A stretch of 64,000 bases of DNA from an uncultured Pseudomonadota bacterium (GTDB taxonomy: Bacteria > Oederibacteriota > Muellerivitia > Muellerivitales > Muellerivitaceae). The stretch covers positions 256,001 through 320,000 of the forward strand of contig CAWJKT010000006.1 in the NCBI GenBank assembly GCA_963843375.1, written 5' to 3'. The notes under the pieces are model-generated. The model made no database searches. It was given only the letters and a program-made list of their open reading frames with translations, and was not told the DNA's origin. Made by a program: the position numbers and the translations under genes. Positions 1,710 through 15,472 of this stretch are shown in pieces; position 1 is the first letter of the stretch; each line of letters starts with the position of its first letter.

Positions 1710-1864
1710 TGAAATAACCTCAAATCGATATGGGGCGTTGGGAGGGGTGGGAGAAACTGTTTAACTAAAAAATTTTAGTTTGACCGTGAGCCGTAGGCAA
1801 CATAATAAATAACAGATAAAATTACACTTTTAATGTTAAATTTAAGTAAAAAAGGTTTTTAGTT

Positions 1865-1890
1865 GTCCCATGCACCTCCCCGTCGTGGAT
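1865..1890. repeat. 26-bp inter-module site, hybrid copy (GTCCCATGCACC-TC-CCCGTCGTGGAT)
   Basis: Right arm 11/12 to consensus, central TC and terminal GTCC at exact spacing; 29 bp beyond stop of the 1920 gene. Confidence 0.7.
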
Positions 1891-1919
1891 CGCGAAATCG
1901 ATTCTCTATCCCAATCCCC

Positions 1920-4619
1920 TTAAGGGGTGATTAAAAATTTGCCCCGCTGCAATACCATTTGGCCGTTCTGAATCACGTAATAGTAAATTCCAGGTGAGAC
2001 GGTCGATCCTTGCTGGTTCTTCGCCCCGACCCATTCGGTGGGGTCTCCCGACTGGCTGATACTGTTGACCAGTTCGCCCGAAAGGGTGTAAATGAAAACC
2101 TGCGCACCTGCGGGCAGGCAGCTGATTCTCAGAGAATGGTTCAAGGCCCAATGGGGGCTGTAAGGGTCAGGCCAGACATGAATGGCACAGGGAGGCGTCG
2201 AAGTTGGTGTAACAGAAGAAGTGGTGGTAAACGTGGCGGTCAAGGTGATGGTAGCCGTTATGGTCGGGCTGTTGGTAGGAGTGTTTGTGGGGGTCTGCGT
2301 CACCGTGGGGGTAACAGTATTCGTTGGTGACAGAGTCGACGGGGGAGTGACAGTTGGCGTGGAGGTAGCTAAGGCAAATTTGGTGACGAAAGCGTCGCCG
2401 AAGCCCCCCGTATCCCCGATAACGGTTTGATAGGCACCGGCCGTGATTGGGAAATTGGCAGAAGTCGTCATGCCGGTAATGTAAAGCCCTCCCGAACCAT
2501 CCATGGCCAAGCCTTGCCCATATTCAACGGAGCTTCCCCCTAAATAAGTGGAATAAAGAAGATTCGTGCCGGTCGGGTTCAATTCAAAGAGAAACGCATC
2601 CTGCGAACCCCCCAGGGCGGTTTGGAAAGCCCCCGGGGTGGTTGGGAAATTGGGGGAGGCGGTCCATCCCGAAACGAAGGCGTCTCCACTGGAATCCACC
2701 GCCAAGCCATACGCATATTCCGCGACGGTACCGCCAAGATAAGTGGAATATGCCAGGGAGGCTCCACCAGCGTTCAATTTAGTCACGACCGCATTTTCAC
2801 CCTTTTGAACCGTTTGATAGGCTCCGGAAGTTATGGGGTAGTTCGTCGCGTCGGTGGAGCCGCCCACATAGGCATTACCGGCTGAGTCCACCGTGATCAC
2901 TCCCCCGTAATTGTTGCCGTTCCCCGCAAGGTAAGTGGAGTACACCAACCCGCTCCCCGAAGGATTCAACTCGGTTACCATGATATCGGAGGCCCCGGTG
3001 ACGTAATTGGGTTGGAACGAGCCTGGGGTGGTGGGAAAACCGCCCAGGGTGTAGCCCACGACATAGGCATCATCAGCCGGGTCCAGGGCGATCCCGAACC
3101 CATCGGAGACATCGGTCCCGTTCAGGTAAGTGGAATAGACCAAGCCGGTTCCGTTGGGGTTCACCTTGGTGATGAAGAGGCCCGAGAGGGGTGGTGCGAC
3201 GGTTTCATAAGCCCCGGATGTAGTTGGAAAGTTTGGCGAGCTGACATCGCCTTCCACATAAGCGTTGCCCCCGGCGTCAACCGCGATGCCGGTCCCTTCA
3301 TCGTTCTGGGATCCTCCCAGGTAAGAGGAATAGACCAGGGCCGAACCCGTAGGATTGAGTTTGGTGACAAAAGCGTCATAATCCCCTCCCACGGCCGACT
3401 GGAAGGCACCCGGAGTGGTCGGGTAATTGGTGGTACCGGTGAAACCGGTGACATAGGCGTTCCCGCCTCCGTCCAAGGCGATGGCGGAGCCCTCGTTGAC
3501 GGGTCCGCCCAAGGTTGTACCGGGGTCCGCGATGGTCCCCCCTAAAAAGGTGGAATAGACCAGAGCGGTCCCGGTGGGGTTCAACTTCGTCACGAACGCG
3601 TTGAAACCAGCGATCGTATTCTGGAAAGCGCCAGCCGTGATCGGGAAATTGGTGGAGTCGGAATAACCCACGATATATGCATTCCCCCCGGCATCCACCG
3701 CGATGCCCGTGCCCTCTTCCTGGCGGATTCCCCCCAGAAATGTGGAATAGGCCAGCACAGGATCGATGACCAGAGGCTGGGTGCGATCGTAAGTTCCCAC
3801 CCGGAACCCGATGATGCCCTTTCCCACAAGGGCGTATCTTCCATTCACGATCATCCTCCGGCCAGCCAGATCCTGATAGGCCACCGGCGCCTTGAAGACC
3901 GCCGCCCCCTGACCCCTTCCTAAATATAGGTCCCCCTTACCGTCCAGATGAATCCCCCGGGGACCGCTATAGGCCAGCCGGATCTGCCCCGGGTCGGCGC
4001 CCGGTTTTAAGACAAAGTCATACTCCAGCCGGCCTTGCCGCCCGTAATAGACCATGTCGATGCCGGTATAAACGTCCTTGGCCACGACACGACTATATTG
4101 GGGGATGTTCGAATGCCATTTTTTGGGGTCGTTACCGAGGAAATAGTTGCTGTGGCCGAGGAGTTTTTGATCCCCTTCCCAGGAAGCCCGGGGATCAGCT
4201 CCTTTGAGCCCCAGCCAAACCGTTTGGTGAGAACGGGGCGAAGGCTTGGTACTTGGAAGTTTCGGCGAATACCATACATGGGTCTCTTTCCTTCCCAGCC
4301 CCTCGGGCCCTACCCATGACAAGAAGGCTCCTGTTTCGGTCAGAAAAAGAGTGTAACCCGATCCCCGAGCCAGGAACTTGACCTTTGAGTCGGCCTGCCC
4401 CTCGTTGGGTTCGAAAGCCAAGGGCAGAAGGCCGAAGGTGTTTTTAAGGTCAATCAGGGATGGATCATGAGGAAAAAATCGGGAAGGCACGCCGTGGAAT
4501 ATCCTCTGGAAGAAGTTCCGGACAGGAACCGGCGACCGATAGACGAAAAAACCAATCACCAAGACGAAAAGAAGGGGCCCCATGGCCAAACTGACCGGTC
4601 GAAAAAGACACCACTTCAT
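1920..4619 (-). CDS. SBBP-repeat beta-propeller protein with N-terminal beta domain, Thr/Pro linker and FlgD-Ig/CTD-like C-terminus
   Basis: Repeats 'LVYSTYLGG..D.G.GIAVD..GNAYV.G.T.S.NFPTT.GAFQ'; 'FEPNEGQ' and 'LEYDF' N-terminal motifs; C-terminal 'YTLSGELV...W...SPGIYYY'; ATG at 4619 after GGAGGG. Confidence 0.8.
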   Translation of the reverse strand: MKWCLFRPVSLAMGPLLFVLVIGFFVYRSPVPVRNFFQRIFHGVPSRFFPHDPSLIDLKNTFGLLPLAFEPNEGQADSKVKFLARGSGYTLFLTETGAFLSWVGPEGLGRKETHVWYSPKLPSTKPSPRSHQTVWLGLKGADPRASWEGDQKLLGHSNYFLGNDPKKWHSNIPQYSRVVAKDVYTGIDMVYYGRQGRLEYDFVLKPGADPGQIRLAYSGPRGIHLDGKGDLYLGRGQGAAVFKAPVAYQDLAGRRMIVNGRYALVGKGIIGFRVGTYDRTQPLVIDPVLAYSTFLGGIRQEEGTGIAVDAGGNAYIVGYSDSTNFPITAGAFQNTIAGFNAFVTKLNPTGTALVYSTFLGGTIADPGTTLGGPVNEGSAIALDGGGNAYVTGFTGTTNYPTTPGAFQSAVGGDYDAFVTKLNPTGSALVYSSYLGGSQNDEGTGIAVDAGGNAYVEGDVSSPNFPTTSGAYETVAPPLSGLFITKVNPNGTGLVYSTYLNGTDVSDGFGIALDPADDAYVVGYTLGGFPTTPGSFQPNYVTGASDIMVTELNPSGSGLVYSTYLAGNGNNYGGVITVDSAGNAYVGGSTDATNYPITSGAYQTVQKGENAVVTKLNAGGASLAYSTYLGGTVAEYAYGLAVDSSGDAFVSGWTASPNFPTTPGAFQTALGGSQDAFLFELNPTGTNLLYSTYLGGSSVEYGQGLAMDGSGGLYITGMTTSANFPITAGAYQTVIGDTGGFGDAFVTKFALATSTPTVTPPSTLSPTNTVTPTVTQTPTNTPTNSPTITATITLTATFTTTSSVTPTSTPPCAIHVWPDPYSPHWALNHSLRISCLPAGAQVFIYTLSGELVNSISQSGDPTEWVGAKNQQGSTVSPGIYYYVIQNGQMVLQRGKFLITP

Positions 4620-4825
4620 ATGCCCTCCCAATAAAAACCCCCGCGATCAAGCCTTTGGGTCCAGACGAAGAGGGGTCCATAAGTCTTCTAAATACAAAAC
4701 CAATTAATATGGATTTTATCACCAAACCGCAGCCCTCTTGATAAAAGCAGGTCACTTTTTCCGCTTTTTTGGAACAGGTCAGGTTTGAATTTCATGTTGA
4801 ATAGCGTTTTATTTTAATTATTTAG

Positions 4826-5266
4826 TCAGCTCACCTTTTTTCTATTTCGAGGCTTAAACCCATATCTTATTGCCACTTCAAGTACATCAATGTTTATATC
4901 TTTCAGCGTTTTGAACTTAATGCAATATCCGCTCACACTCACCTTGCCGAGTTTTTTTCCGTATGTTCTGGCTAAATATTTCTTATCCTTGATACCAAGT
5001 ATATAGACAGAGATTCCGGTTTTGTTTGCACTGATACCAATTCGATAAAACTCTCTGGTTTTTCCTCCCGCATATTTTATGGTTTGAAACCCATATCCTA
5101 TATTAGGATTAGAAATAATTTTATTCTCGCTGTTTTTACCGCCCAAGAACCATAATTTACACGCTGGCATTACTTGAAGAATGATGCGGTGCAACGCTTG
5201 CATGTCGCTGTGTTTTGGTTCAGGTTGGCTACTAATATACTTTTTGATTTGTTTTTGAACGTTCAT
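4826..5266 (-). CDS. DUF1801 (YdhG-like) domain protein
   Basis: 'KKYISSQPEPK...LHRII...NIGYG...GKLGKVSVSGYCIKFK' pattern; visibly AT-rich relative to neighbours. Confidence 0.7.
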   Translation of the reverse strand: MNVQKQIKKYISSQPEPKHSDMQALHRIILQVMPACKLWFLGGKNSENKIISNPNIGYGFQTIKYAGGKTREFYRIGISANKTGISVYILGIKDKKYLARTYGKKLGKVSVSGYCIKFKTLKDINIDVLEVAIRYGFKPRNRKKVS

Positions 5267-5362
5267 ATAAATCCGGGATTCCCCAGATGACTTCTCCCTA
5301 CAACATCGCCGGTTAATTTGTTCCTCATTTAATTCCCCTCCTTCCCCCTGCTTCCTTTACTT

Positions 5363-5386
5363 GTCCAATCTTGGTCCCCGTCGGAC
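5363..5386. repeat. Degenerate inter-module site (GTCCAATCTTGG-TC-CCCGTC--GGAC)
   Basis: Variant left arm GTCCAATC.., central TC, right arm with 2-bp deletion; flanked TT/AA. Confidence 0.6.
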
Positions 5387-5454
5387 AATTATTCCTGGGA
5401 ATCTCGCCGCCCTCACAACAACTTGTCTGGGGAATGATCAACAAGTTGGCCGCC

Positions 5455-6039
5455 TTAGGCTCCAATAGTACCTGTCTTAACTTTTCCGGCCCGCTTGTAA
5501 TTGGCAAAGATCACTCCGGTTGGCGTTACCATACTCTCGGTTAATGTAAATGCCGCCGGAATCGCGCCACCGTCAAACAACTTTTTTCCTTTACCAAGGG
5601 TCAACGGGCAGATCCTGAGCCAGAGTTCGTCCACTAAATCATTCTTCAGTAGAAGTTGAATGAGCTCACCACTGCCGTGAACTTGAATGTCAGGACCTTT
5701 TGAATTTTTGAGCTTTTTGATATCCGCTGAGCTTTTGATAAAAACTGAGTTTTTCCAATCCGACTTTTTCAGGGTCTTGGACAGGACATACTTTGTCCCT
5801 TCATTGATGCCTGGCCAAAAGTCTGAATGTTTAGGCCAATAGGGGGCCCAACTCTCAAACGTTTTTCTGCCCAAAAGATAATCCGCGGGTTTCGAAAGTT
5901 GTTCCTGGACCTTCTTCCTCCCAACTTCGGTAATATAAGGCGCAATCCAACCGCCATATTTGAAACCGCCTGATTTATCTTGCCCAGCTTGCATAACTCC
6001 ATCTAATGTAATAGCTGATAAGACGATAATTTTTCTCAT
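5455..6039 (-). CDS. Dihydrofolate reductase-like (RibD C-terminal family) protein
   Basis: 'ITLDGVMQA', 'LLGRKTFE', 'VHGSGELIQLLLKNDLVDEL', 'GKGKKLF'; ATG at 6039 after GGAGG. Confidence 0.85.
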   Translation of the reverse strand: MRKIIVLSAITLDGVMQAGQDKSGGFKYGGWIAPYITEVGRKKVQEQLSKPADYLLGRKTFESWAPYWPKHSDFWPGINEGTKYVLSKTLKKSDWKNSVFIKSSADIKKLKNSKGPDIQVHGSGELIQLLLKNDLVDELWLRICPLTLGKGKKLFDGGAIPAAFTLTESMVTPTGVIFANYKRAGKVKTGTIGA

Positions 6040-6116
6040 GTAATCGCCCCCTCCAAAGTTCAATTGTTAAATAAAATTCCAAACACAAACTGCGACATTT
6101 TAATTAATATTCTTTT

Positions 6117-6142
6117 GTCCACGATGGGTCCTCGTCAATGAC
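6117..6142. repeat. 26-bp inter-module site (GTCCACGATGGG-TC-CTCGTCAATGAC)
   Basis: Left arm 11/12 to consensus, right arm divergent; TT/AA extension. Confidence 0.75.
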
Positions 6143-6247
6143 AACTTCATTGTTCATTAAGTCTTCACTAACGTGCGAAACGCAAAAACCCGCATAGTGT
6201 GCAAAGGAGCCTTGATCTAAGTCGATAGCATCAATCCCGCCCCATCG

Positions 6248-6664
6248 TCAAAGCAGCCCACGATGGCCTCGATAGTCCGAATTTTTATCAAGTCCACGCT
6301 CTTGGATGACTTTCCCGGCCGCAGCTAACGCCGTCGCAACAGCCGGAAATCCCACATAAGGCAGCGCCTGAACCAGGGCCTCTTCGATTTCATCGAGGGT
6401 GAGGCCATTGTTGAGAGCAATATTCATGTGGATCGCGAACTCATTTGGCTGCCTCAAGGCGATCATGACGGCCATCGACACCAGACTGCGCGCTTTCCGA
6501 TCCAAGCCCGGCCGAGTCCAGATTTCGCCGAAGGCCTGATCAATTGCAAATCTCGCAACCATTGAGCCAAACGTGCCTGATTCGGCGGATGCCAATAGTC
6601 GCTCCGAAGTTTCTTCGCCCATTAATTCGACTATGATTTTTTCACCTGCTTCTCTTCGTTCCAT
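6248..6664 (-). CDS. Carboxymuconolactone decarboxylase (CMD/AhpD-like) family protein
   Basis: 'FGEIWTRPGLDRKARSLV...HMNIALNNGLT..EIEE...YVGFPA'. Confidence 0.85.
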   Translation of the reverse strand: MERREAGEKIIVELMGEETSERLLASAESGTFGSMVARFAIDQAFGEIWTRPGLDRKARSLVSMAVMIALRQPNEFAIHMNIALNNGLTLDEIEEALVQALPYVGFPAVATALAAAGKVIQERGLDKNSDYRGHRGLL

Positions 6665-6721
6665 AACCACCCCCCAAGTTTGTTCCATCGATCAAATTAT
6701 TACTATAAATAGGAACGCCCC

Positions 6722-6747
6722 GTCCACGACGGGTTCCCGCCGTGGAC
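6722..6747. repeat. 26-bp inter-module site (GTCCACGACGGG-TT-CCCGCCGTGGAC) within a 42-bp hairpin 6714-6755
   Basis: Near-perfect palindrome extended by AACGCCC/GGGCGTT. Confidence 0.9.
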
Positions 6748-6868
6748 AGGGCGTTTCGCCCGCTTGACCATAAAATTATTTTAATTTATTTGAAACAACT
6801 TTTTGGCAAGATTTGAAAGGTTCAAAACGCGTTAAGTTTAAACGGGGATGAAAAAAAGCCGGGCAACA

Positions 6869-8224
6869 TCATCCCGGCAGGGGCTTGGTGACGAGCGTCG
6901 AGAGATAGTCCCTTAACGCGTCCAATTCCTCCGGTGTGCCCACGATCTGCGGCATATAGGCGTGGTAGGGGGAATCAGGCTTGTCCTCGTGTAGTATTTT
7001 CAAAAGACTTCCGATGGCTTCCTTGTCCCTTCCGGCCAAAAGCTGGTTTATGGGCCGGTAGCCGTCCACGGTGTGGCAGGACATGCATTGGCCCCGGAAC
7101 ATGGCCTCGCCCACCGCCAAATGCGGGTCCCCTCCCTCCCTCACCCAGGAGGAATGGGTCAAAAAGCCGTCGTTGTTGAATTTGTCCACCGACTTCAGGC
7201 GAACCCCGTTGGAGAACATGTGCCCCACGATGATGTAGGGCTTGCGAAGCATTTCCCGCACATATTCGGAGGAGGCGGTGGCGCAGAGCCCCAATAGCAA
7301 TATGGCCATGGCGTGGCCCGGGCGGAAGTCGTTTGGCGAGCGCCAAGCGAAGAAATAAACCACCCCCACCACCGTAACTGAGGTCATCAGGATGACTAGG
7401 ACCATTCGGGTCACCTGGGTGAACATTCCCTTGCCCATGGTGGCGATGCCCAGTTCCAAAAGGCCCCTCTGGGATTCGGGAATCTGGTGGAGGAACCATA
7501 GCAAAAGAAAGGGCATGCTGAAAAAAAGCGGCAGAAGCCATTGGGCGCTCCAATGCACCAGTTCGGCCCGCAAGGCGGCATCCTCATGGCCCATGCGGCT
7601 GTAGGAAACCAATGCCCAAACCCCCGCAAGGGAAAAGCAGACCCCCATGCGGAGAAAGAGGCTGGGCCAATAGGTGGGGTTAAAGAAAGCCTCCCAAAAG
7701 CGGCTGGACTCCTGCCCCGTGCCGGCCACCGAAAGCCATGCGGCCCCAGGAGTCAGCTTGAAAGTAAGGATGCCGTTGATGATGATAAGAGTGAAAAGAG
7801 AGGAAACCGCGTAAAGAAGCCCCACTTTCAAGTGCAGTTCGTCGGAAATGCGGCCCCAGGTGTAGTAATAGACCGCCACGGTGCTGAGCTCCACGATGAA
7901 GAAAACCCACTCAATGGCCCAACCGAAGACGAAGTTGTGGATGAGGGTGCTAGTGGCCTCGGGCGCGGCCAGGCCGATGGCGAACCAGATGCCCACCCCC
8001 GAAACCGTACCGAAAACGCCCGTCACGAGCAGGAAGAAGCGCGAGTGTGCCTGGATGATCTTAAGCCAGTCCAACCGGCCGTCCTTGAGGGCCTTGCGTT
8101 CGGCGAAATAAAGGTAGATGCCCCCGCCCACGGCGAACTGGGAAATCATCACGTGGAAGATGGCGATCATGCCGATCACCCATCCGCTGCCGGTGAAGGG
8201 GACGACCCAGAAGGGATAGTTCAT
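6869..8224 (-). CDS. Cytochrome bd subunit I (CydA)-like oxidoreductase with C-terminal c-type heme domain
   Basis: 'AIFHVMISQFAVGGG', 'GTVSGVGIWF', 'WAIEWVFF', 'EYVREMLRKPY' CydA-like motifs; CMSCH heme-c motif; no long Q-loop apparent. Confidence 0.8.
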   Translation of the reverse strand: MNYPFWVVPFTGSGWVIGMIAIFHVMISQFAVGGGIYLYFAERKALKDGRLDWLKIIQAHSRFFLLVTGVFGTVSGVGIWFAIGLAAPEATSTLIHNFVFGWAIEWVFFIVELSTVAVYYYTWGRISDELHLKVGLLYAVSSLFTLIIINGILTFKLTPGAAWLSVAGTGQESSRFWEAFFNPTYWPSLFLRMGVCFSLAGVWALVSYSRMGHEDAALRAELVHWSAQWLLPLFFSMPFLLLWFLHQIPESQRGLLELGIATMGKGMFTQVTRMVLVILMTSVTVVGVVYFFAWRSPNDFRPGHAMAILLLGLCATASSEYVREMLRKPYIIVGHMFSNGVRLKSVDKFNNDGFLTHSSWVREGGDPHLAVGEAMFRGQCMSCHTVDGYRPINQLLAGRDKEAIGSLLKILHEDKPDSPYHAYMPQIVGTPEELDALRDYLSTLVTKPLPG

Positions 8225-8241
8225 TTTTTAAAATCTCCTTT

Positions 8242-9312
8242 TCAAACGCCCAGGTAGCCCCAGACGGTCAACCCCGCCAGGAGCCCCAGGACCAGAAGGC
8301 CGAAATAGGTGGCGTTTTTCCCCCGTCGGCCCGAATTGGAAACGGGGTCATAGAGGGGGACGAGGAACCACAACACCAATCCTAGGGTGAAAAGCACGAG
8401 CCCCAGGCTTTCCCCCATTTCTCCCGGAAAAAGCTTCCCGAAAACCTTGAGCACCTGAAAGGAACTCATGAAATACCATTCGGGATGGATTCCAGGGGGG
8501 GCGGACTTAAGTAAATCAGCCTGGTCACCCAGTTCCCAGGGAAAGAGGGCGGCGAAAAGGGTAAGCAGGTTGAGGGTGATGAGCCACATGGCCAGATCCT
8601 GCATCATGAAGTTGGGAAAAAAGGGGATGCTTTTGCGCTTGGACGGCTGGACCGATACCTCGGACGGCGGCAGGGCGTTGCCGTGCTTCTGCACCAGCCA
8701 GAGGTGAAAGGCCAGGAGGGGAATGAAAATGGCGGGCATGACCACCACGTGCAGGGCGAAAAAACGCTGGACCGTGGTGGCCGTCACGTCCGAACCGCCC
8801 CGGACGATGCTCGAAATCTGGTGACCGATTAGGGGGAAATGGGTGGGAATATCCAGCCCCACCTTGGTGGCGAAAAGGGCTAGCTCGTTCATGGGCAAAA
8901 GATAGCCGCTGAAGCCCCAGACCATGGTGAGGATGAGGAGGAAAATACCGCTCCACCAACCGAATTCCCGGGGACTGCGGTAGGCCTTCATGAAAAAGAC
9001 CGAGAACATGTGGACGAAAATTGCCAGCACCATCAGATTGGCGGCCCAGGAATGAGTGGAGCGGATGAGCCAGCCGAAATTAATCTCGTAACTGATTTGC
9101 CGCACCGACTCATAGGCCGAGGGGCCAGGCTGGTAATAGATGAGCAAAAGCACGCCCGTAACCCCCTGGACGAGGAAGAGGAAAAGCGAGATGCCGCCCC
9201 AGTAATACCAGAAGGAGTGCTTGTGCTGGGGCACGGTCTTGTGGCTGGCGAATTCGATGATCTCGCTTAGGCCGAGGCGCTCGTCGACCCAGTTGTAGAT
9301 TTTCTTGTTCAT
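8242..9312 (-). CDS. Cytochrome b (bc-type complex, b6 + subunit IV fused)
   Basis: Heme His pairs in 'RSTHSW...FVHM' and 'FALH...AFHL'; PEWY motif. Confidence 0.92.
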   Translation of the reverse strand: MNKKIYNWVDERLGLSEIIEFASHKTVPQHKHSFWYYWGGISLFLFLVQGVTGVLLLIYYQPGPSAYESVRQISYEINFGWLIRSTHSWAANLMVLAIFVHMFSVFFMKAYRSPREFGWWSGIFLLILTMVWGFSGYLLPMNELALFATKVGLDIPTHFPLIGHQISSIVRGGSDVTATTVQRFFALHVVVMPAIFIPLLAFHLWLVQKHGNALPPSEVSVQPSKRKSIPFFPNFMMQDLAMWLITLNLLTLFAALFPWELGDQADLLKSAPPGIHPEWYFMSSFQVLKVFGKLFPGEMGESLGLVLFTLGLVLWFLVPLYDPVSNSGRRGKNATYFGLLVLGLLAGLTVWGYLGV

Positions 9313-9322
9313 TCTCTTTTTC

Positions 9323-9778
9323 CTAAGTTCTGGATACGGCCACGCCGCCGGGTACCACTTTGGCCACGTAAAGGGTTAAGGGCCGGGGCGGGGGCCCGCT
9401 GATGTTTTTTCCTGTTTGGGCGTCGTATTCGCCGCCGTGGCAATTGCAATGGATGACGTTGCGGACCGGCAAATATTCCACCGTGCAGCCCAGGTGGGTA
9501 CAGACCGCGTCCATGGCCACCCAATTTCCGTCCTCATGGTGGATGAGGAGCGAGGGCCGGGAACCGAAGCTGAACATCAGGACACTCCCTTTTGGGAGGT
9601 TTTCCGCGTCCTTCAAAGTGACCTCGGTGACTGTGGACATGCCCGCTTCCTTCTCGGCGGGCGAGGTGAGATAGCGGTAGACCGGATAGCCGATGGCTGC
9701 CCCGTAGCAGGCCCCCACGCCTAGGACCGCCACCTTCACGAACTCGCGGCGGGTGATGGGCATCTTCGGATCAGTCAT
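9323..9778 (-). CDS. Rieske 2Fe-2S protein
   Basis: Tat-like 'TRREF', CTHLGC and CNCHGGEYD boxes, 'GPPPRPL'. Confidence 0.93.
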   Translation of the reverse strand: MTDPKMPITRREFVKVAVLGVGACYGAAIGYPVYRYLTSPAEKEAGMSTVTEVTLKDAENLPKGSVLMFSFGSRPSLLIHHEDGNWVAMDAVCTHLGCTVEYLPVRNVIHCNCHGGEYDAQTGKNISGPPPRPLTLYVAKVVPGGVAVSRT

Positions 9779-10883
9779 GACTCCCTCCTTCGAGGATGGG
9801 TTTTGAACGCATCAGCACGGAGATCAGCCAGGCTAGGGCCCCGATACCGAGGACGAAAACCCAAAGGAAGGTCACCACCACCAACCAGTTGGTGACGACA
9901 GGCTGGCTCCAAACGTCAAAGCCCTTGTGGGCCAGGGTCACATCACGGATGCCGTCCCGGAGGATAACCCAATTGGCCACAGCCAAAAGAGCCATCAGCG
10001 CGGCCACATAACCGGCGGCAGGACCCCGGGGTTTTTTCACCACGGTCCAAAGCCCAAAAAGCAGAATCACCAAAGCCAATGGGTAATAGGTAAAGGAAAC
10101 CATGCTGTAAAAGCCATTGGCGGAAAGTCCTGAACTCACAAAATCCGGCTGGTTGGAAATGATGAGGTAATAGGTGACGGCCTGTAGGAGTATGCCCAAG
10201 ACGGCCATTTTCCCCCCCAGGCCCGACAGGTAAAGCTTGAGAGGTTCCTGGACGCTCTTGCGGCCCGCGATCCAGACCATCCAGAAACCGGACACCCAAA
10301 GGGCGCCGCAAAGCATGAAGAGCCAGCGGGGGTTCAGGGTAGGGTCGTAGGGTGGTATTTGATTTCCCAAGGGAGCGGCGGAATACATGTCGCGCCAAAC
10401 CTCCGGCTTGAGCATGAGTGCCATGTTGGTGGATAAAATGCGGGAGATGATCCCGGCCAAAAACAGAGAAGCAAATCCCTTGAACCATGGCTTTTTCCCT
10501 GCGGCCACCCCATCCGAAAAACCGTAGAGCAGCCAATAACATGCCATCAGCAGGAGGATCACAGAAAACCAGAAGAAACCGATCAGCACATTGGCGGTAT
10601 AGAGAGCCGGACCGTAGAGCACCTGGGCAAAGAGGAGCGGCGGGATACCCAGGTTGATGACGTAGGTCATGACAATGGGAAGTCTTTTAGCTAAGGCTTT
10701 TGCCGCCTCCTGCCGCTGGGCGTTGGAGGAACCGAGGAGATTGAGCAGGATGGCTGTCAGGAGTCCACCCAGGAACATCTTCACCGCAATGAAGTGGAGG
10801 CTGAGGGTAAGGACGTCCAACCCCTTGAATAGCCAGACAGGCGCGGGCAGAGGGATGGGGTCGGTCCAGGGAAAAAGGTTCAT
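9771..10883 (-). CDS. Polytopic membrane protein, probable second (CydA'-like) subunit of the bd-like oxidase
   Basis: About nine hydrophobic segments; 'TLSLHF', 'INLGIPPLLFAQVLYG'; overlaps Rieske start; first gene of operon. Confidence 0.6.
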   Translation of the reverse strand: MNLFPWTDPIPLPAPVWLFKGLDVLTLSLHFIAVKMFLGGLLTAILLNLLGSSNAQRQEAAKALAKRLPIVMTYVINLGIPPLLFAQVLYGPALYTANVLIGFFWFSVILLLMACYWLLYGFSDGVAAGKKPWFKGFASLFLAGIISRILSTNMALMLKPEVWRDMYSAAPLGNQIPPYDPTLNPRWLFMLCGALWVSGFWMVWIAGRKSVQEPLKLYLSGLGGKMAVLGILLQAVTYYLIISNQPDFVSSGLSANGFYSMVSFTYYPLALVILLFGLWTVVKKPRGPAAGYVAALMALLAVANWVILRDGIRDVTLAHKGFDVWSQPVVTNWLVVVTFLWVFVLGIGALAWLISVLMRSKPILEGGSHD

Positions 10884-10979
10884 GGAATAAGGCGCTCCAT
10901 TTTTTGACGAAAACCCTGCAAGCTTTCCCCCCGATTGCGCGGAATGCACCAAAGGTTATTTCATGTGTACTTTTTGTTC

Positions 10980-10995
10980 TATGATCAAAATCATA
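10980..10995. promoter_or_regulatory. Crp/Fnr-like palindrome TATGAT-CAAA-ATCATA
   Basis: Perfect 6-4-6 inverted repeat resembling TTGAT-N4-ATCAA, ~100 bp upstream of the respiratory operon. Confidence 0.5.
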
Positions 10996-11097
10996 TTGGA
11001 CAGATATTCACCCTGCCCATGGGCGAAAGCAAGAGGCAAGACGGATTTAGATAGCCGGATTAAAAATAAATCTTGTTGATATTTTAGTAGTGTGGTT

Positions 11098-11123
11098 GTC
11101 CACGACGGGTCCCCGCCGTGGAC
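11098..11123. repeat. 26-bp inter-module site (GTCCACGACGGG-TC-CCCGCCGTGGAC)
   Basis: Near-perfect palindrome extended by GTT/AAC (11095-11126); 44 bp beyond stop of the 11168 gene. Confidence 0.92.
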
Positions 11124-11167
11124 AACTGATTCATTTTAAGATGGTTGATATTGGCTGGGTTTTATTG

Positions 11168-11731
11168 TCAGCCATCGATGACTTTTAAGCTTTTCAACTG
11201 GCGCAGTATCCGCATGTCCTCGGCCATATCCCCGATTTTTTCGGCCCATCGGCGAAGGTACTTTTTATCGAGGAACGGTCCTTGCCGGGCCACAATGGCT
11301 TCGACGTCCGCCAAATCTTTTGTCCTTCCAGGAATCAATTTTAAAAGGATTAAATCTTCCGGCGAAGGCATGGGAACCATCCGCCCAAAAAGCTTTAACG
11401 AAACCTTTCGGCTCAAGGCGGAACGCTCCAATTCAGTGGAGGCGATAATCACGTCCACAGGGACCTTCCGAAAAGCGATGGTAAACGCCCCTCTGGTCTT
11501 TGCGCCATAAATGGCTTTTTGAGGATTGACTTGAAATTTTTTGCCTGCTTTTTTAAGGAAGGCGGGCAAACCCGCCTTCTCGATGAATAAAATAAGGTCG
11601 ATATCCTGGGTCATTCGCGGCTGGCCCGAGGCCAAAACCGCCAATCCACCGATCAACAGATAATCCGCTTTGGTTTCTTTGAGAAGGGAAATCAGCTCGT
11701 GGAAGGCCGACTCAATGGGATTGGTGGACAT
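11168..11731 (-). CDS. Nucleotidyltransferase-fold protein (DUF6036/AbiEii-like)
   Basis: 'YLLIGGLAV...GQPRMTQDIDL', 'VDV', 'SPEDLILLKL..GRTKDLADV'. Confidence 0.8.
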   Translation of the reverse strand: MSTNPIESAFHELISLLKETKADYLLIGGLAVLASGQPRMTQDIDLILFIEKAGLPAFLKKAGKKFQVNPQKAIYGAKTRGAFTIAFRKVPVDVIIASTELERSALSRKVSLKLFGRMVPMPSPEDLILLKLIPGRTKDLADVEAIVARQGPFLDKKYLRRWAEKIGDMAEDMRILRQLKSLKVIDG

Positions 11732-11927
11732 AAAAGGAAAGCGCCATGGGCTTATCGTGTCGCAAATTGGGTTTTTTCGCGTTGAAGGCGGCCCGAATCA
11801 GGTTTTCCCCCATGCGAATACTTTCCTTCAACGAAAGCTTTCGCAGGGAAGACCGGTTTTCTTTTTCGCTGTATTTCTTGAATCTTTTGGGGTTCTTAAC
11901 CATGGTTGAATTCATTGTAGGGGGCAT
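11712..11927 (-). CDS. Small basic protein, putative partner/antitoxin of the nucleotidyltransferase
   Basis: Overlaps start of the NTase gene; 71 aa basic; typical bicistron arrangement; start uncertain. Confidence 0.55.
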   Translation of the reverse strand: MPPTMNSTMVKNPKRFKKYSEKENRSSLRKLSLKESIRMGENLIRAAFNAKKPNLRHDKPMALSFYVHQSH

Positions 11928-12037
11928 TCACGGCAGGTTCAACGTGTATTGGTCCGTCTTGAAATTTCCATCCCTGTGGTTTAAGCCTTTCTAGGGTAAA
12001 AATTGGACCCACTATCATTTTCGCCGTCCAATACACT

Positions 12038-12063
12038 GTCCACGACGGGTCCCCGTCGTGGAC
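12038..12063. repeat. 26-bp inter-module site, perfect copy (GTCCACGACGGG-TC-CCCGTCGTGGAC)
   Basis: Perfect 12-bp arms plus CT/AG extension (12036-12065); 27 bp beyond the GH43 stop. Confidence 0.93.
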
Positions 12064-12090
12064 AGGTTATATTTTTAATCTTGATCCAAT

Positions 12091-14194
12091 TTACTTTTGG
12101 CGCATGATCTCGATGGCGCAGACCTTGGCGTTATGGACCGAGGAAACGAATCGTAGATGGATCATCCCATCCGCGTCCGGGCTGGATGTCCGGGAAGCTT
12201 TTATCGACAGCCTTGTCGAAGGCCCCCGCCTCCTTGAGGATATCGAAATGGGCGAGAACCTTTTTCCCGTTGATGAGAATATCAAATACCCTATCGCCTT
12301 CTTTCTTCACGTTGGTCTCGGCGAACCTCAAATGAACCTGGTACTTACCCGGTAACACCGGAAGGGAATAACTGAAATCCCTCCCGTTGCGTTCGAATTG
12401 ATATAGTTCCTGCGTCCGGGTTCCAGCGATGGAATCCCAACAACGGGCCACATCCCCATCGGAATAGCCAATATCCGACGACCAGTACAAACCATCCTTG
12501 TCCCGGAATTCTTCCCAGCCGGTTCGGATGCGCCAATGGTCCGTGGGGGCCAGGGGTATGGGATTGGGCTGCGGCGAGAGGGACACTTGTTCTGGGACGA
12601 CCCCGGGTAGCATTTCGAACCAGTCGAAGTCCGCGTAATTCTCGGATTCCTTGCCGTTGGCCGTGGCATAGAGGCCGACCACTGTTCCGGTAAAGCCGCC
12701 AGCCTTCTCCCGGGAAAGATCGGCGGACGGGCAAGCCGCGAGGTTGTTCCAGGTCTTACCGTCGTTGGACCAGGCGAATTGGTACCGGTCTTCGGTGCCG
12801 GAAATCTCCAGTTGGACTTTGCCCGATTTCATCGGTTCTTGGGCAATCATATATTCCCGGTTTTTAATCCGGTTCCGTACGAATAGCCGGGTTTCCCCGC
12901 CGAACCGCCCCAAGCCAACCTCATAATGGTTATCCTCGTTGGCCCGCACACAAAGACCCGCCTCCTCGCCGTCTTGCAGTGGATTAAATTCCATCTCGGT
13001 ACGGGCGCTAAAACGGAACGAGGTCTGGCGCCGGCCCACGAAAGCGGGATCTTCAAAAATGGTGTTCAGGCTGTCCTTGGTCGCCCGGATTCGGAGATAT
13101 CCTTTCCGTTCCGTCAGGGAGAAATTTTCCGGGTCAAAATTTCGGATATGCAGCCACTCAGGGCCCAACTGGGAGCCGGTAAAAAGGGTCCTCGGTTGGG
13201 GAGCCTCCACGGCGAACAGCTTTAACTTTGGTGCTTCCATTTCCAGGGCAACATGGTGGTTTTTACCCGCCACTGGCCAACCATCCAGTGTCCATTGGAC
13301 AGGCGTGAGAAAGGTTTCCCGGCCCAGCACCGACATGCCGCCCTGGGGCCGGGTTCCGAGGAAAACTAGCCACCAGGTTCCGTCAGGAGCGTCAATTAAG
13401 TCGGCGTGTCCCGCGCATTGGATGGGGCTTTGGGGATCGTCGCGTTGGGTGAGGATGGGATTATGGGGGCAGGACTCAAAAGGGCCCCAAGGGCTGCTGC
13501 TCCGGGCCGCGACTTCTTGATGATAACTTCCGGTTCCACCCGTGGCGCTGATGAGATAGTACATCCCTTTGATCTTGTACATGTGCGGGCCCTCATTCCA
13601 TTCGCCCTGGTATTCCCAAGCCTTCTTGAAGGGTGTTTTCAGCTTCAGGCTGGACGGGTCTAATTCGGCCTGCGCGATGCCGTTCCCATTGTCGGCCCCG
13701 GCATGGTCGTAATAGATCTTCCCGTCGTCGTCAAAGAACATGGAACCGTCGATCCCGTAATCGTTCAGCCAGACCGGCTCCGACCAGGGGCCCGCCGGGT
13801 CCTTGGCGGTGACGATGAAATTTCCCCCTCCGCTGACGTTGTCGCAGGTCAGGTAAAAAGTCCCCTTCCAGTAGCGAAGGGTTGGCGCGTATAGGCCGCC
13901 CCGGTCCGACGCCCCTTGGAGGGGCAACTGGCTGGGGCGGTTCAGGGCATTTCCGATGAATTCCCAATGGACTAGGTCACGGCTGTGGTAGATAGGAAGG
14001 CCGGGGAAATACTCGAAGGTGGAATTGGTGAGGTAAAAGTCCTCCCCTACCCGGCAGATGCTGGGATCGGGATGGAAACCGGTCAGGATGGGATTCTTGA
14101 AGGTTTTTAACATGGTCTTGGCGTCCGCCTTATCCACCATCCCCGAAAACCACAGGGAGATGGCCATGATTGGACCCAAAAATCTAAAGCGCAT
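12091..14194 (-). CDS. GH43 beta-xylosidase/arabinofuranosidase with C-terminal malectin domain (1-bp frameshift near 12180)
   Basis: 'NPILTGFHPDPSICRVGEDFY', 'WNEGPH', 'GHADL', 'GFTG'; malectin 'LHFAE/FDILING'-type motifs continue as 'DGMIHLRF...NAKVCAIEI' in the 12091..12285 frame; ATG 14194 after GGAGG. Confidence 0.88.
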
Positions 14195-14298
14195 GAGGCC
14201 TCCTTTGGGACTGGGTCGTTTGATTATAGACCAGGGATAAGGTGGTTGAGAAAAAACGATTTGGGAACAGGAGTTGGATTGGACAGCGGTTATTAATT

Positions 14299-14324
14299 GT
14301 CCACGATGGGTCCCCGTCGCGGAC
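14299..14324. repeat. 26-bp inter-module site (GTCCACGATGGG-TC-CCCGTCGCGGAC)
   Basis: Each arm 11/12 to consensus; TT/AA extension; 34 bp beyond the DUF202 stop. Confidence 0.9.
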
Positions 14325-14358
14325 AAAGCCCGAACCTCGATTTTCCCATTCGGCCCGG

Positions 14359-14754
14359 CTAATTATTCACGAGAAGATAAACCGCCATTACGAGGCCAAT
14401 GAGACCCAGTCCCAAGGCAATTCCGATTCCCAAATAGGATGGTTTGATCTCGGGGGTTTCTCCCAGTTTAAGAAAGGAAACAAAGCGCACATAGTCGGCA
14501 ACGACCAACCCTTGAACCAGGACCCCCGTTAAAACCAAAAGTGTTCCAAACCACATAGACCATCCCGAGTGTCCGGGCAAGGAGTTATCAACCCGCCCTT
14601 GAATCATGCGCAGGAACAAGCTGAAACGGGCAACGACGAAACCGAAACCCATCAGGGCCAAACCGGTCCTGATCCAAGCCAGGAAGGTTCGTTCCTTCGC
14701 CCAAAAAATTCGAGGATCGACATTTTTAAACTGGTTTTTGGTGGATGTTTTCAT
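14359..14754 (-). CDS. DUF202 / YidH family membrane protein
   Basis: 'DPRIFWAKERTFLAWIRTGLALMGFGFVVARF'. Confidence 0.88.
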   Translation of the reverse strand: MKTSTKNQFKNVDPRIFWAKERTFLAWIRTGLALMGFGFVVARFSLFLRMIQGRVDNSLPGHSGWSMWFGTLLVLTGVLVQGLVVADYVRFVSFLKLGETPEIKPSYLGIGIALGLGLIGLVMAVYLLVNN

Positions 14755-14796
14755 GTTGGATATTTTCGCCTGTCGATAATTAAAAAGTGCCCTGTA

Positions 14797-14988
14797 TTAA
14801 CCCCAAACATTTAAGATCGTCTGTGCCTTCGTCCAATCCGGATCCCCGCCGTGGGCAAAATCAGCCGCCTTATTTGTTTTTTTGTCTTCGTCGATCTTGA
14901 GGATTTCCCTGACCTTTTCCATGAAATCCGGTTTCAACCCCTGGTAATGTCCCGAGACGTCGATATTCCCGGTACCCGGGAACTCCAA
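14797..14988 (-). pseudogene. Possible relic of a tyrosine recombinase C-terminus
   Basis: 'PGTGNIDVSGHYQGLKPDF' has the spacing of the LGH-x8-Y-xxLxPD box II with His replaced; in-frame stop just upstream; lies next to the tRNA. Confidence 0.25.
14831..14856. repeat. 26-bp site, tRNA-proximal hybrid copy (GTCCAATCCGGA-TC-CCCGCCGTGGGC)
   Basis: Right arm 11/12 to the 11098 copy; left arm of the GTCCAATC class seen at 5363; exact 12-2-12 spacing. Confidence 0.7.
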
Positions 14989-15396: not shown

Positions 15397-15472
15397 TGGA
15401 GCTGGGGACCGGGATCGGACCGGCGACCTGCTGTTTACGAAACAGCTGCTCTACCAACTGAGCTACCCCAGC
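15397..15472 (-). tRNA. tRNA-Thr(CGT), CCA encoded
   Basis: GCTGGGG/CCCCAGC acceptor stem, TAGCTCAGTTGGTAGAGC D-arm, GCTGT-TTCGTAA-ACAGC anticodon arm, 3' TCCA. Confidence 0.96.

Follow-up and report, generated by a model that had tools for sequence, protein, structure and literature searches.

Sites of 28 bp as the probable joints of integron-like gene cassettes in an FCPU426 family, with a shortened serine recombinase as the candidate enzyme

We have analysed a 64,000-nucleotide stretch of DNA (the window; positions 256,001 to 320,000 of contig CAWJKT010000006.1, assembly GCA_963843375.1) from an uncultured soil bacterium, referred to here as G000, whose assembly spans 4.05 Mb and is 80% complete. 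Eight co-oriented 28-bp sites lie in a row in the window, from position 1864 to 14857, and we put at about 0.72 the probability that such sites are the joints of an integron-like cassette system worked by a shortened serine recombinase in one family of candidate division FCPU426. Each site is made up of a 13-bp left arm (positions 1-13), a TC (14-15) and a 13-bp right arm; the perfect copy at 12037-12064 serves as the reference for arm matches, which we give as left/right, each of 13. A preliminary description of the window had drawn attention to four sites with one well-matched and one divergent arm, and had proposed that they arose by crossover at the central TC between a palindromic site and a second class of site. 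All four exist, with GTCC at positions 2-5 and the TC at 14-15, although each 28-mer begins one base earlier than first given, at 1864, 5362, 6116 and 14830; their arm matches are 6/11, 8/8, 12/9 and 8/11, respectively.

When modules are compared across other genomes, their homology stops at the centre of the site to within 4 bp, in agreement with the central crossover first proposed. From a pool of 849 unique sites we discarded 12 matches in Actinomycetota (the one that was looked at sits within a coding gene) and set aside 28 sites that abut a group II intron, leaving 809. The 785 of these with 60-bp flanks were used, each cluster contributing one pair in which one flank is at least 97% identical and the other unrelated. 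Because part of the pool was gathered by a pattern that fixes the right arm, we contrast the two kinds of pair with each other rather than with a global background. When the upstream flank is shared (23 clusters), the left arms are identical in 21 and the right arms in 8, whereas when the downstream flank is shared (27 clusters), the right arms are identical in 18 and the left arms in 4 (Fisher test of upstream- against downstream-shared pairs, p = 7e-8 and 0.046). Mismatches extend from the left up to position 13 (three clusters), start from the right at position 18 and number zero at positions 14-17, and in a trio of loci (L420, L427 and L480) a rare base at position 18 goes with the downstream DNA. 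These comparisons support a switch bracketed to positions 14-17, which contain the TC. Since positions 16-17 are almost invariant, the TC is picked out of this bracket by symmetry only, and no informative close pair was found that would narrow the crossover inside it. Three-way comparisons, which are partly redundant, yielded in 11 of 13 cases the site predicted by combining a left half with a right half. One array occurs both empty (L308) and filled (L277), differing by a 524-bp unit, and its marked arms remain with their neighbours; an insertion in genome G022 unites sites that differ at both positions 12 and 13. Cassettes that are 100% identical are found in differing contexts, also across genera (388 bp in G022 and G026; 975 bp in G001 and G025).

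Divergence is not spread evenly along the site, as the preliminary description had anticipated. Across the 809 sites the consensus base is present in 54-69% at left-arm positions 7-10 and in 97-98% at positions 14-18; positions 12 and 13 are conserved at 93% and 85%, and positions 14-17 at 98%. The TC core is found in 775 of the 809 and the 6-bp consensus centre in only 633. In G000 alone (n = 85), a set free of the sampling bias towards right arms, the left arm carries a mean of 2.66 mismatches and the right arm 1.54 (p = 9e-5). This unevenness is partly position-specific tolerance within the left arm, so that part of the left/right difference needs no crossover. Left arms also carry linked alleles at positions 7-9 (Cramer's V 0.5-0.7) and 12-13, and T at position 8 is present in 42% of left arms against 13% at the mirror position. 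The motif GTCCAAT, noticed earlier in the left arms of two variant sites, is indeed there, but it is a widespread recurring allele with nothing particular to that pair. The two arms covary neither within one site (7 against 7.5 expected, P = 0.63) nor within one cassette, where a circle would join them (10 against 7.2 expected, P = 0.18), and for this reason every site would be a hybrid, perfect palindromes included. Judged by sequence, the four odd sites are ordinary members of the family, each with a left arm that would come from the upstream cassette.

A profile search of G000 recovered 87 sites at 15 bits or more, against 0, 4 and 0 in three shuffles, and these copies are arranged in arrays on five contigs. 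By pattern search the site occurs in 27 of the 31 genomes of the family, in the one other genome of the same order (1/1) and in 0 of 67 others in the phylum; most named records that bear it carry the label candidate division FCPU426, and viral contigs gave 0 matches to it. Among neighbouring sites in all fetched DNA, 543 pairs are co-oriented and 8 opposed. The unit between sites has a median length of 815 bp, and in 447 of 477 units of 200-2,500 bp the longest open reading frame (ORF) lies on the strand opposite to the site. Many of the 78 ORFs scanned as cargo are toxin-antitoxin genes, GNATs and reductases. An Rfam search over 139 kb returned only one transfer RNA (tRNA) and one intron domain. 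We also observed at C9:261806 of G000 a perfect site whose core is reversed within an otherwise uniform array; the flanking genes keep the array direction, which suggests flipping of the centre alone.

Most likely, on the evidence of linkage and domains, the best candidate enzyme for these sites is a serine recombinase of 281 amino acids (aa) encoded at C9:137160-138005, the sole Recombinase-domain match in G000, with domains PF00239 (E 4e-21) and PF07508 (E 3e-15). Its stop codon lies 36 bp ahead of the first site of the adjoining array; for orthologues the corresponding distance is 34 bp in G001, 8 bp in G022 and 14 bp in G025, G018 and four copies in G026 (three of them 5'-truncated), and a broken copy in G028 likewise abuts a site. 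That serine recombinases, a class that exchanges over 2 bp, adjoin the arrays lends further support to a central crossover. Short recombinases of this kind form 19 clusters of 275-283 aa, all terminating ahead of the zinc ribbon, and make up one side of a branch with an approximate likelihood-ratio (SH-aLRT) support of 99 in a quick tree built from 49 rows, each trimmed to 300 residues; the zinc ribbon itself (PF13408) was not found in any of the three genomes searched. The ratio of nonsynonymous to synonymous substitution (dN/dS) is 0.08-0.16 in the 7 unsaturated of 10 pairs, indicating purifying selection, and the RVS and DR..R motifs are invariant. The nearest relatives are 510-529 aa long, and four full-length relatives, none with a site within 20 kb, extend into tRNA genes or the end of a tRNA. 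The predicted fold of the 281-aa enzyme matches the SPbeta, Bxb1 and phiC31 integrases (Foldseek), and the 13-bp contact area of the recombinase domain of a Listeria integrase (PMC3783163) equals the arm length of the cassette site.

Several features around the recombinase gene bear on its history. Separate arrays are headed by 5'-truncated recombinase ends with a first site (L062, L063 and L064 of G026; L067 of G018), suggesting that arrays spread through breakage or copying of the platform. A conserved chromosomal position of the enzyme was rejected, as the genes upstream differ between genomes; several genomes nevertheless share upstream genes that we take to be mobile-element-like, which suggests that the recombinase gene rides a mobile element. 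Upstream of the gene in L020 lie two copies of a 21-bp imperfect palindrome (~8384-8404 and ~8084-8104), a possible operator. The 3' end of tRNA-Asn(GTT) of G000 (T-arm and end of the acceptor stem) matches a half-site plus core at 11 of 15 bases, the best of 44 tRNAs; together with the relatives that end in tRNA genes this is a weak lead to an origin of the site from a tRNA end.

In the mechanism that we propose, a cassette would run from one TC to the next and, as the arm statistics and the identical cassettes elsewhere indicate, would carry a right arm beside the 3' end of its gene and a left arm beside the 5' end. There would be a single kind of site, co-oriented through the asymmetric TC, and the enzyme, observed to be linked to the sites and presumed to act on them, would be a large serine recombinase reduced to its catalytic and recombinase domains. 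The two 13-bp arms would be held by a dimer, which would cleave the DNA on both sides of the TC and exchange half-sites; two direct sites would release a circle, which could enter any site and probably would often enter the one beside the enzyme gene. No second class of site would be called for, because an enzyme stripped of zinc ribbon and coiled coil would, to judge from known integrases, no longer distinguish attP from attB; an integrase minus its coiled coil recombines product sites (PMC5499577). Arrays distant from the enzyme or without it, the window's included, would be worked in trans or be dormant stores. We also lean, with somewhat less assurance, towards a fuller account in which a natural serine recombinase free of directionality, left after a tRNA-targeting integrase was shorn of its zinc ribbon and coiled coil, acts on identical 28-bp sites in the manner of Cre/lox and represents an independent invention of the integron. 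On that account there would be a family-wide, cross-genus cassette pool that includes orphan arrays and has group II introns of its own that seek out the sites, and the lopsided decay of the two arms would record the making of new cassettes. We found no description of such a system in the literature searched, most subscription papers being beyond reach.

A number of observations weigh against cassettes worked by this enzyme. An intact enzyme is present in only 5 of the 31 family genomes, and PF07508 gave no match in the array-rich genomes G005, G010, G016, G021 and G023 (89-99% complete). The inheritance of right arms has exceptions, since 9 of 27 differ despite a downstream flank at least 97% identical, mostly at positions 19-20, and left arms exchange multi-base alleles between cassettes that are 84-93% identical. 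The bracket of 14-17 permits a cut between positions 17 and 18 as well. Pairs share genomes and are not fully independent, many sites come from the search with a fixed right arm, and some pairs could be imitated by chimeric assemblies joined at 28-bp repeats. No site of the window had a partner with a flank at least 90% identical (5362, below the cut-off, was excluded), and 0 of 74 metagenome loci had a terminal repeat suggestive of a circle.

Three other explanations deserve consideration. The enzyme is derived from large serine recombinases that are directional, the first site adjoining it usually has an odd left arm, and left arms carry recurring linked alleles; each of these would suit a directional attP x attB system in which, as the preliminary description held, a palindromic site recombines with a separate second class and the odd sites are the resulting attL and attR. 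We nonetheless regard such a system as very improbable: the complementary class of right arms is absent, the arms covary in neither site nor cassette, length and symmetry are the same in every site, and the 281-aa enzyme is without the domains that enforce attP/attB pairing. In addition, every site type flanks identical cassettes in new contexts, so the sites are not dead-end products. It is also unlikely that the sites belong to a tyrosine recombinase, acting either on an 11+6+11 reading like that of dif modules or by single-strand exchange between positions 17 and 18 that is resolved by replication. A length of 28 bp does suit 11+6+11, the bracket takes in this position, a heteroduplex could account for the discordant right arms, and pdif sites tolerate one spacer mismatch (PMC13141974). 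Moreover, a gene for a single-copy, ~370-aa Xer-like tyrosine recombinase is present in 30 of the 31 family genomes, among them those without the serine enzyme, and 4 of 14 tyrosine recombinase genes sit 1.5-3.5 kb from a site. The Xer-like gene, however, has its own AT-rich, near-perfect 11+6+11 palindrome just upstream at 12 of 12 loci (C10:182366 of G000 and L499-L510), and this palindrome resembles the pdif table in PMC13141974 and differs from the cassette site (best score below -3 bits). Gene and palindrome probably constitute a one-enzyme xer/dif system, below the XerC, XerD, XerA and XerS cut-offs; no XerD above cut-off was present in 5 of 5 genomes. Positions 12-13 are conserved no better than the arms, and a double mismatch there was crossed in the G022 insertion. 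There is no integron integrase above cut-off (the best score to the IntI model TIGR02249 in the 80%-complete G000 is 47.5 bits against a cut-off of 265), and the tyrosine integrases near sites are mostly tRNA-adjacent island enzymes, none closer than 1,470 bp. We note that three tyrosine recombinase genes lie side by side at C8:95843-98242 of G000, presumably a recombinase-in-trio element, and that a search of the same genome for an IS110 or bridge recombinase (PF01548) gave no match.

The palindromes might instead be passive repeats (hairpins like those of repetitive extragenic palindromes, operators or intron targets), with homologous or slippage recombination removing or rearranging the cassettes, or with assemblies that jump from repeat to repeat. 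Such events would be expected in the longest run of identity, which begins at position 11 and extends into the right arm, and they could explain the discordance at positions 19-20; right arms of neighbours share variants slightly above expectation (40 against 29.6, P about 0.025, uncorrected), and the site is targeted by two group II intron families. Passive repeats nevertheless leave unexplained the strict co-orientation, the one site per gene boundary and the fixed link to a recombinase, as well as the acquisition of 100%-identical cassettes by different genera, seen in contigs of 38-954 kb. Nor is there compensatory pairing: rare pairs are enriched equally whether complementary (101 against 84.5) or non-complementary (118 against 101.5), on which ground hairpin selection and quasi-palindrome correction were rejected. 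Three of the four sites first described, and 6116, fold not notably better than shuffles (z 0.9 to -1.5). A promoter in the site was rejected too, there being no -10 peak at a fixed distance on either side. We therefore hold passive repeats to be highly unlikely as the general explanation, although some events may come from passive recombination of one repeat with another. Target-arm duplication is contradicted by L277/L308, and the sharing of variants between neighbours is only weak.

The textbook example of a platform for gene capture is the integron, which relies on an unusual tyrosine integrase that works on single strands, with attC a site of variable length that acts as a folded single strand. 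As we read it, the system described here functions like an integron with the parts of a large serine recombinase, and it is set apart from integrons, classical serine integrases and dif modules by what defines each of them. With integrons, sedentary chromosomal integrons and clusters of attC sites lacking integrases (CALINs) it has in common an enzyme gene, an adjacent first site, a co-oriented array of mostly single-gene cassettes, a cargo rich in toxin-antitoxin pairs and acetyltransferases, and orphan arrays. Unlike in integrons, no IntI was found in G000, the site is fixed at 28 bp and shows no hairpin covariation, the odd sites do not fold notably better than shuffles, and exchange would be central. 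Because cassette genes point towards the 3' end of the enzyme gene, they lie beyond the reach of any Pc-like promoter at the enzyme. Integrons also have group II introns in their sites (PMC3001079); IIC-attC introns lie opposite to the cassette genes, whereas the introns here lie on the same strand. Large serine recombinases (A118/LI, Bxb1, phiC31 and SPbeta) resemble the 281-aa enzyme in fold, in having catalytic and recombinase domains and probably in a central 2-bp geometry, but the latter has no zinc ribbon or coiled coil, and they use half-sites of about 25 bp rather than 13 bp and one attP/attB pair rather than one type of site in dozens of copies. It also falls far below the cut-offs for CcrA/B and XisF (80 against 900 bits). 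The pdif/dif modules of Acinetobacter plasmids, which are moved by XerC/D, likewise have 28-bp sites bounding shuffled gene modules and a central crossover (PMC13141974); the cassette sites differ in being GC-rich, unrelated in sequence, constant at the centre, chromosomal and direct, where pdif modules alternate in orientation, and the Xer-like enzyme of the host has a dif-like site of its own.

If our interpretation is correct, cassette arrays arise by convergence, here with a double-strand serine enzyme, and such arrays are invisible to integron finders. The roughly 800 sites and their left/right asymmetry would then be data in a second system for asking how cassettes first arise, and the 281-aa recombinase with its symmetric 28-bp site and 2-bp core would make a compact tool and put the coiled-coil model of directionality to a natural test.

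In the array of the window all sites lie on the plus strand and all units on the minus strand. The array opens with a site at 1864..1891 (20.7 bits; TC at 1877-1878), whose divergent left arm is of a recurring allele type ending in ACC and whose right arm, described as consensus, is so except for its final two bases (11/13). There follows a 3,498-bp unit (1879..5376) with a gene for a 903-aa DUF7948/SBBP beta-propeller protein (1920-4631) and a DUF1801-like gene (4826-5266), which may be two units that lost their intervening site. The site at 5362..5389 is decayed, with a left arm of the GTCCAAT type; it was said to keep its right arm, but that arm is 2 bp short and matches at 8/13. As its score of 10.2 bits lies inside shuffled-genome noise (4-16 hits at 10 bits or more), we accept it on position and orientation. 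A 754-bp unit (5377..6130) with a RibD_C/dihydrofolate-reductase-like gene (5455-6063; PF01872, E 1e-19) leads to the site at 6116..6143 (28.5 bits), near consensus in its left arm (12/13) and divergent in its right (9/13), and a 605-bp unit (6131..6735) with a carboxymuconolactone-decarboxylase-family gene (6248-6688; PF02627) to a site with a TT core at 6721..6748. The inverted repeat of the latter is longer by 7 bp per side (6714-6755), folds at z = -3.6 and stands directly after a cytochrome operon; it may be a dead site that now serves as a terminator. That operon, an unusually large cargo for two sites to enclose, is a respiratory module of four genes (6869-10952) in a 4,376-bp unit (6736..11111), encoding a cytochrome bd-I-like protein, cytochrome b, a Rieske protein and an unknown membrane protein. 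The site at 11097..11124 (27/28 consensus) precedes a 940-bp unit (11112..12051) with a DUF6036 nucleotidyltransferase gene (11168-11731), probably accompanied by a small partner gene, and the perfect site at 12037..12064 precedes a 2,261-bp unit (12052..14312) encoding a GH43 xylosidase with a malectin domain. The site at 14298..14325 (26/28 consensus), a 532-bp unit (14313..14844) with a DUF202 membrane protein gene (14359-14754) and a final site of the GTCCAAT type at 14830..14857 (33.5 bits) complete the array. Beyond it, 540 bp off, lies a tRNA-Thr(CGT) on the minus strand (15397..15472), the array being on its 3' side, and then the core genes ruvA, ruvC and yebC.

Sequencing runs carry variants of this array, as read from alignment tables. 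A 1,835-nt contig from run X1 tracks 10880-12064, continues with ~620-650 bp of unlike DNA and reaches another site, and runs X3 and X5 are compatible with an additional unit ahead of the GH43 cassette. The GH43 cassette (12184-14122) differs at many positions from X1, X3 and X5 while the adjacent DNA is identical, pointing to a different allele in the slot.

Two families of group II intron are found at the sites. A 1.9-kb intron interrupts the right arm of the site beside the recombinase in G000 (C9:135166-137107; ~5166-7107 of L020) and lies on the strand of the cassette genes. Introns of the second family lie one base outside the left arm (28 sites; for example L063 9759-11345 and G000 C9:252514 onward). 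A shared end of such an intron led us to reject the pair C18:59734 and C9:252486 as a case of cassette shuffling. The second family comprises full, internally deleted and remnant copies, and one of its members (L425) is apparently interrupted by an ORF that, from its N-terminus, we take to be IS110-like.

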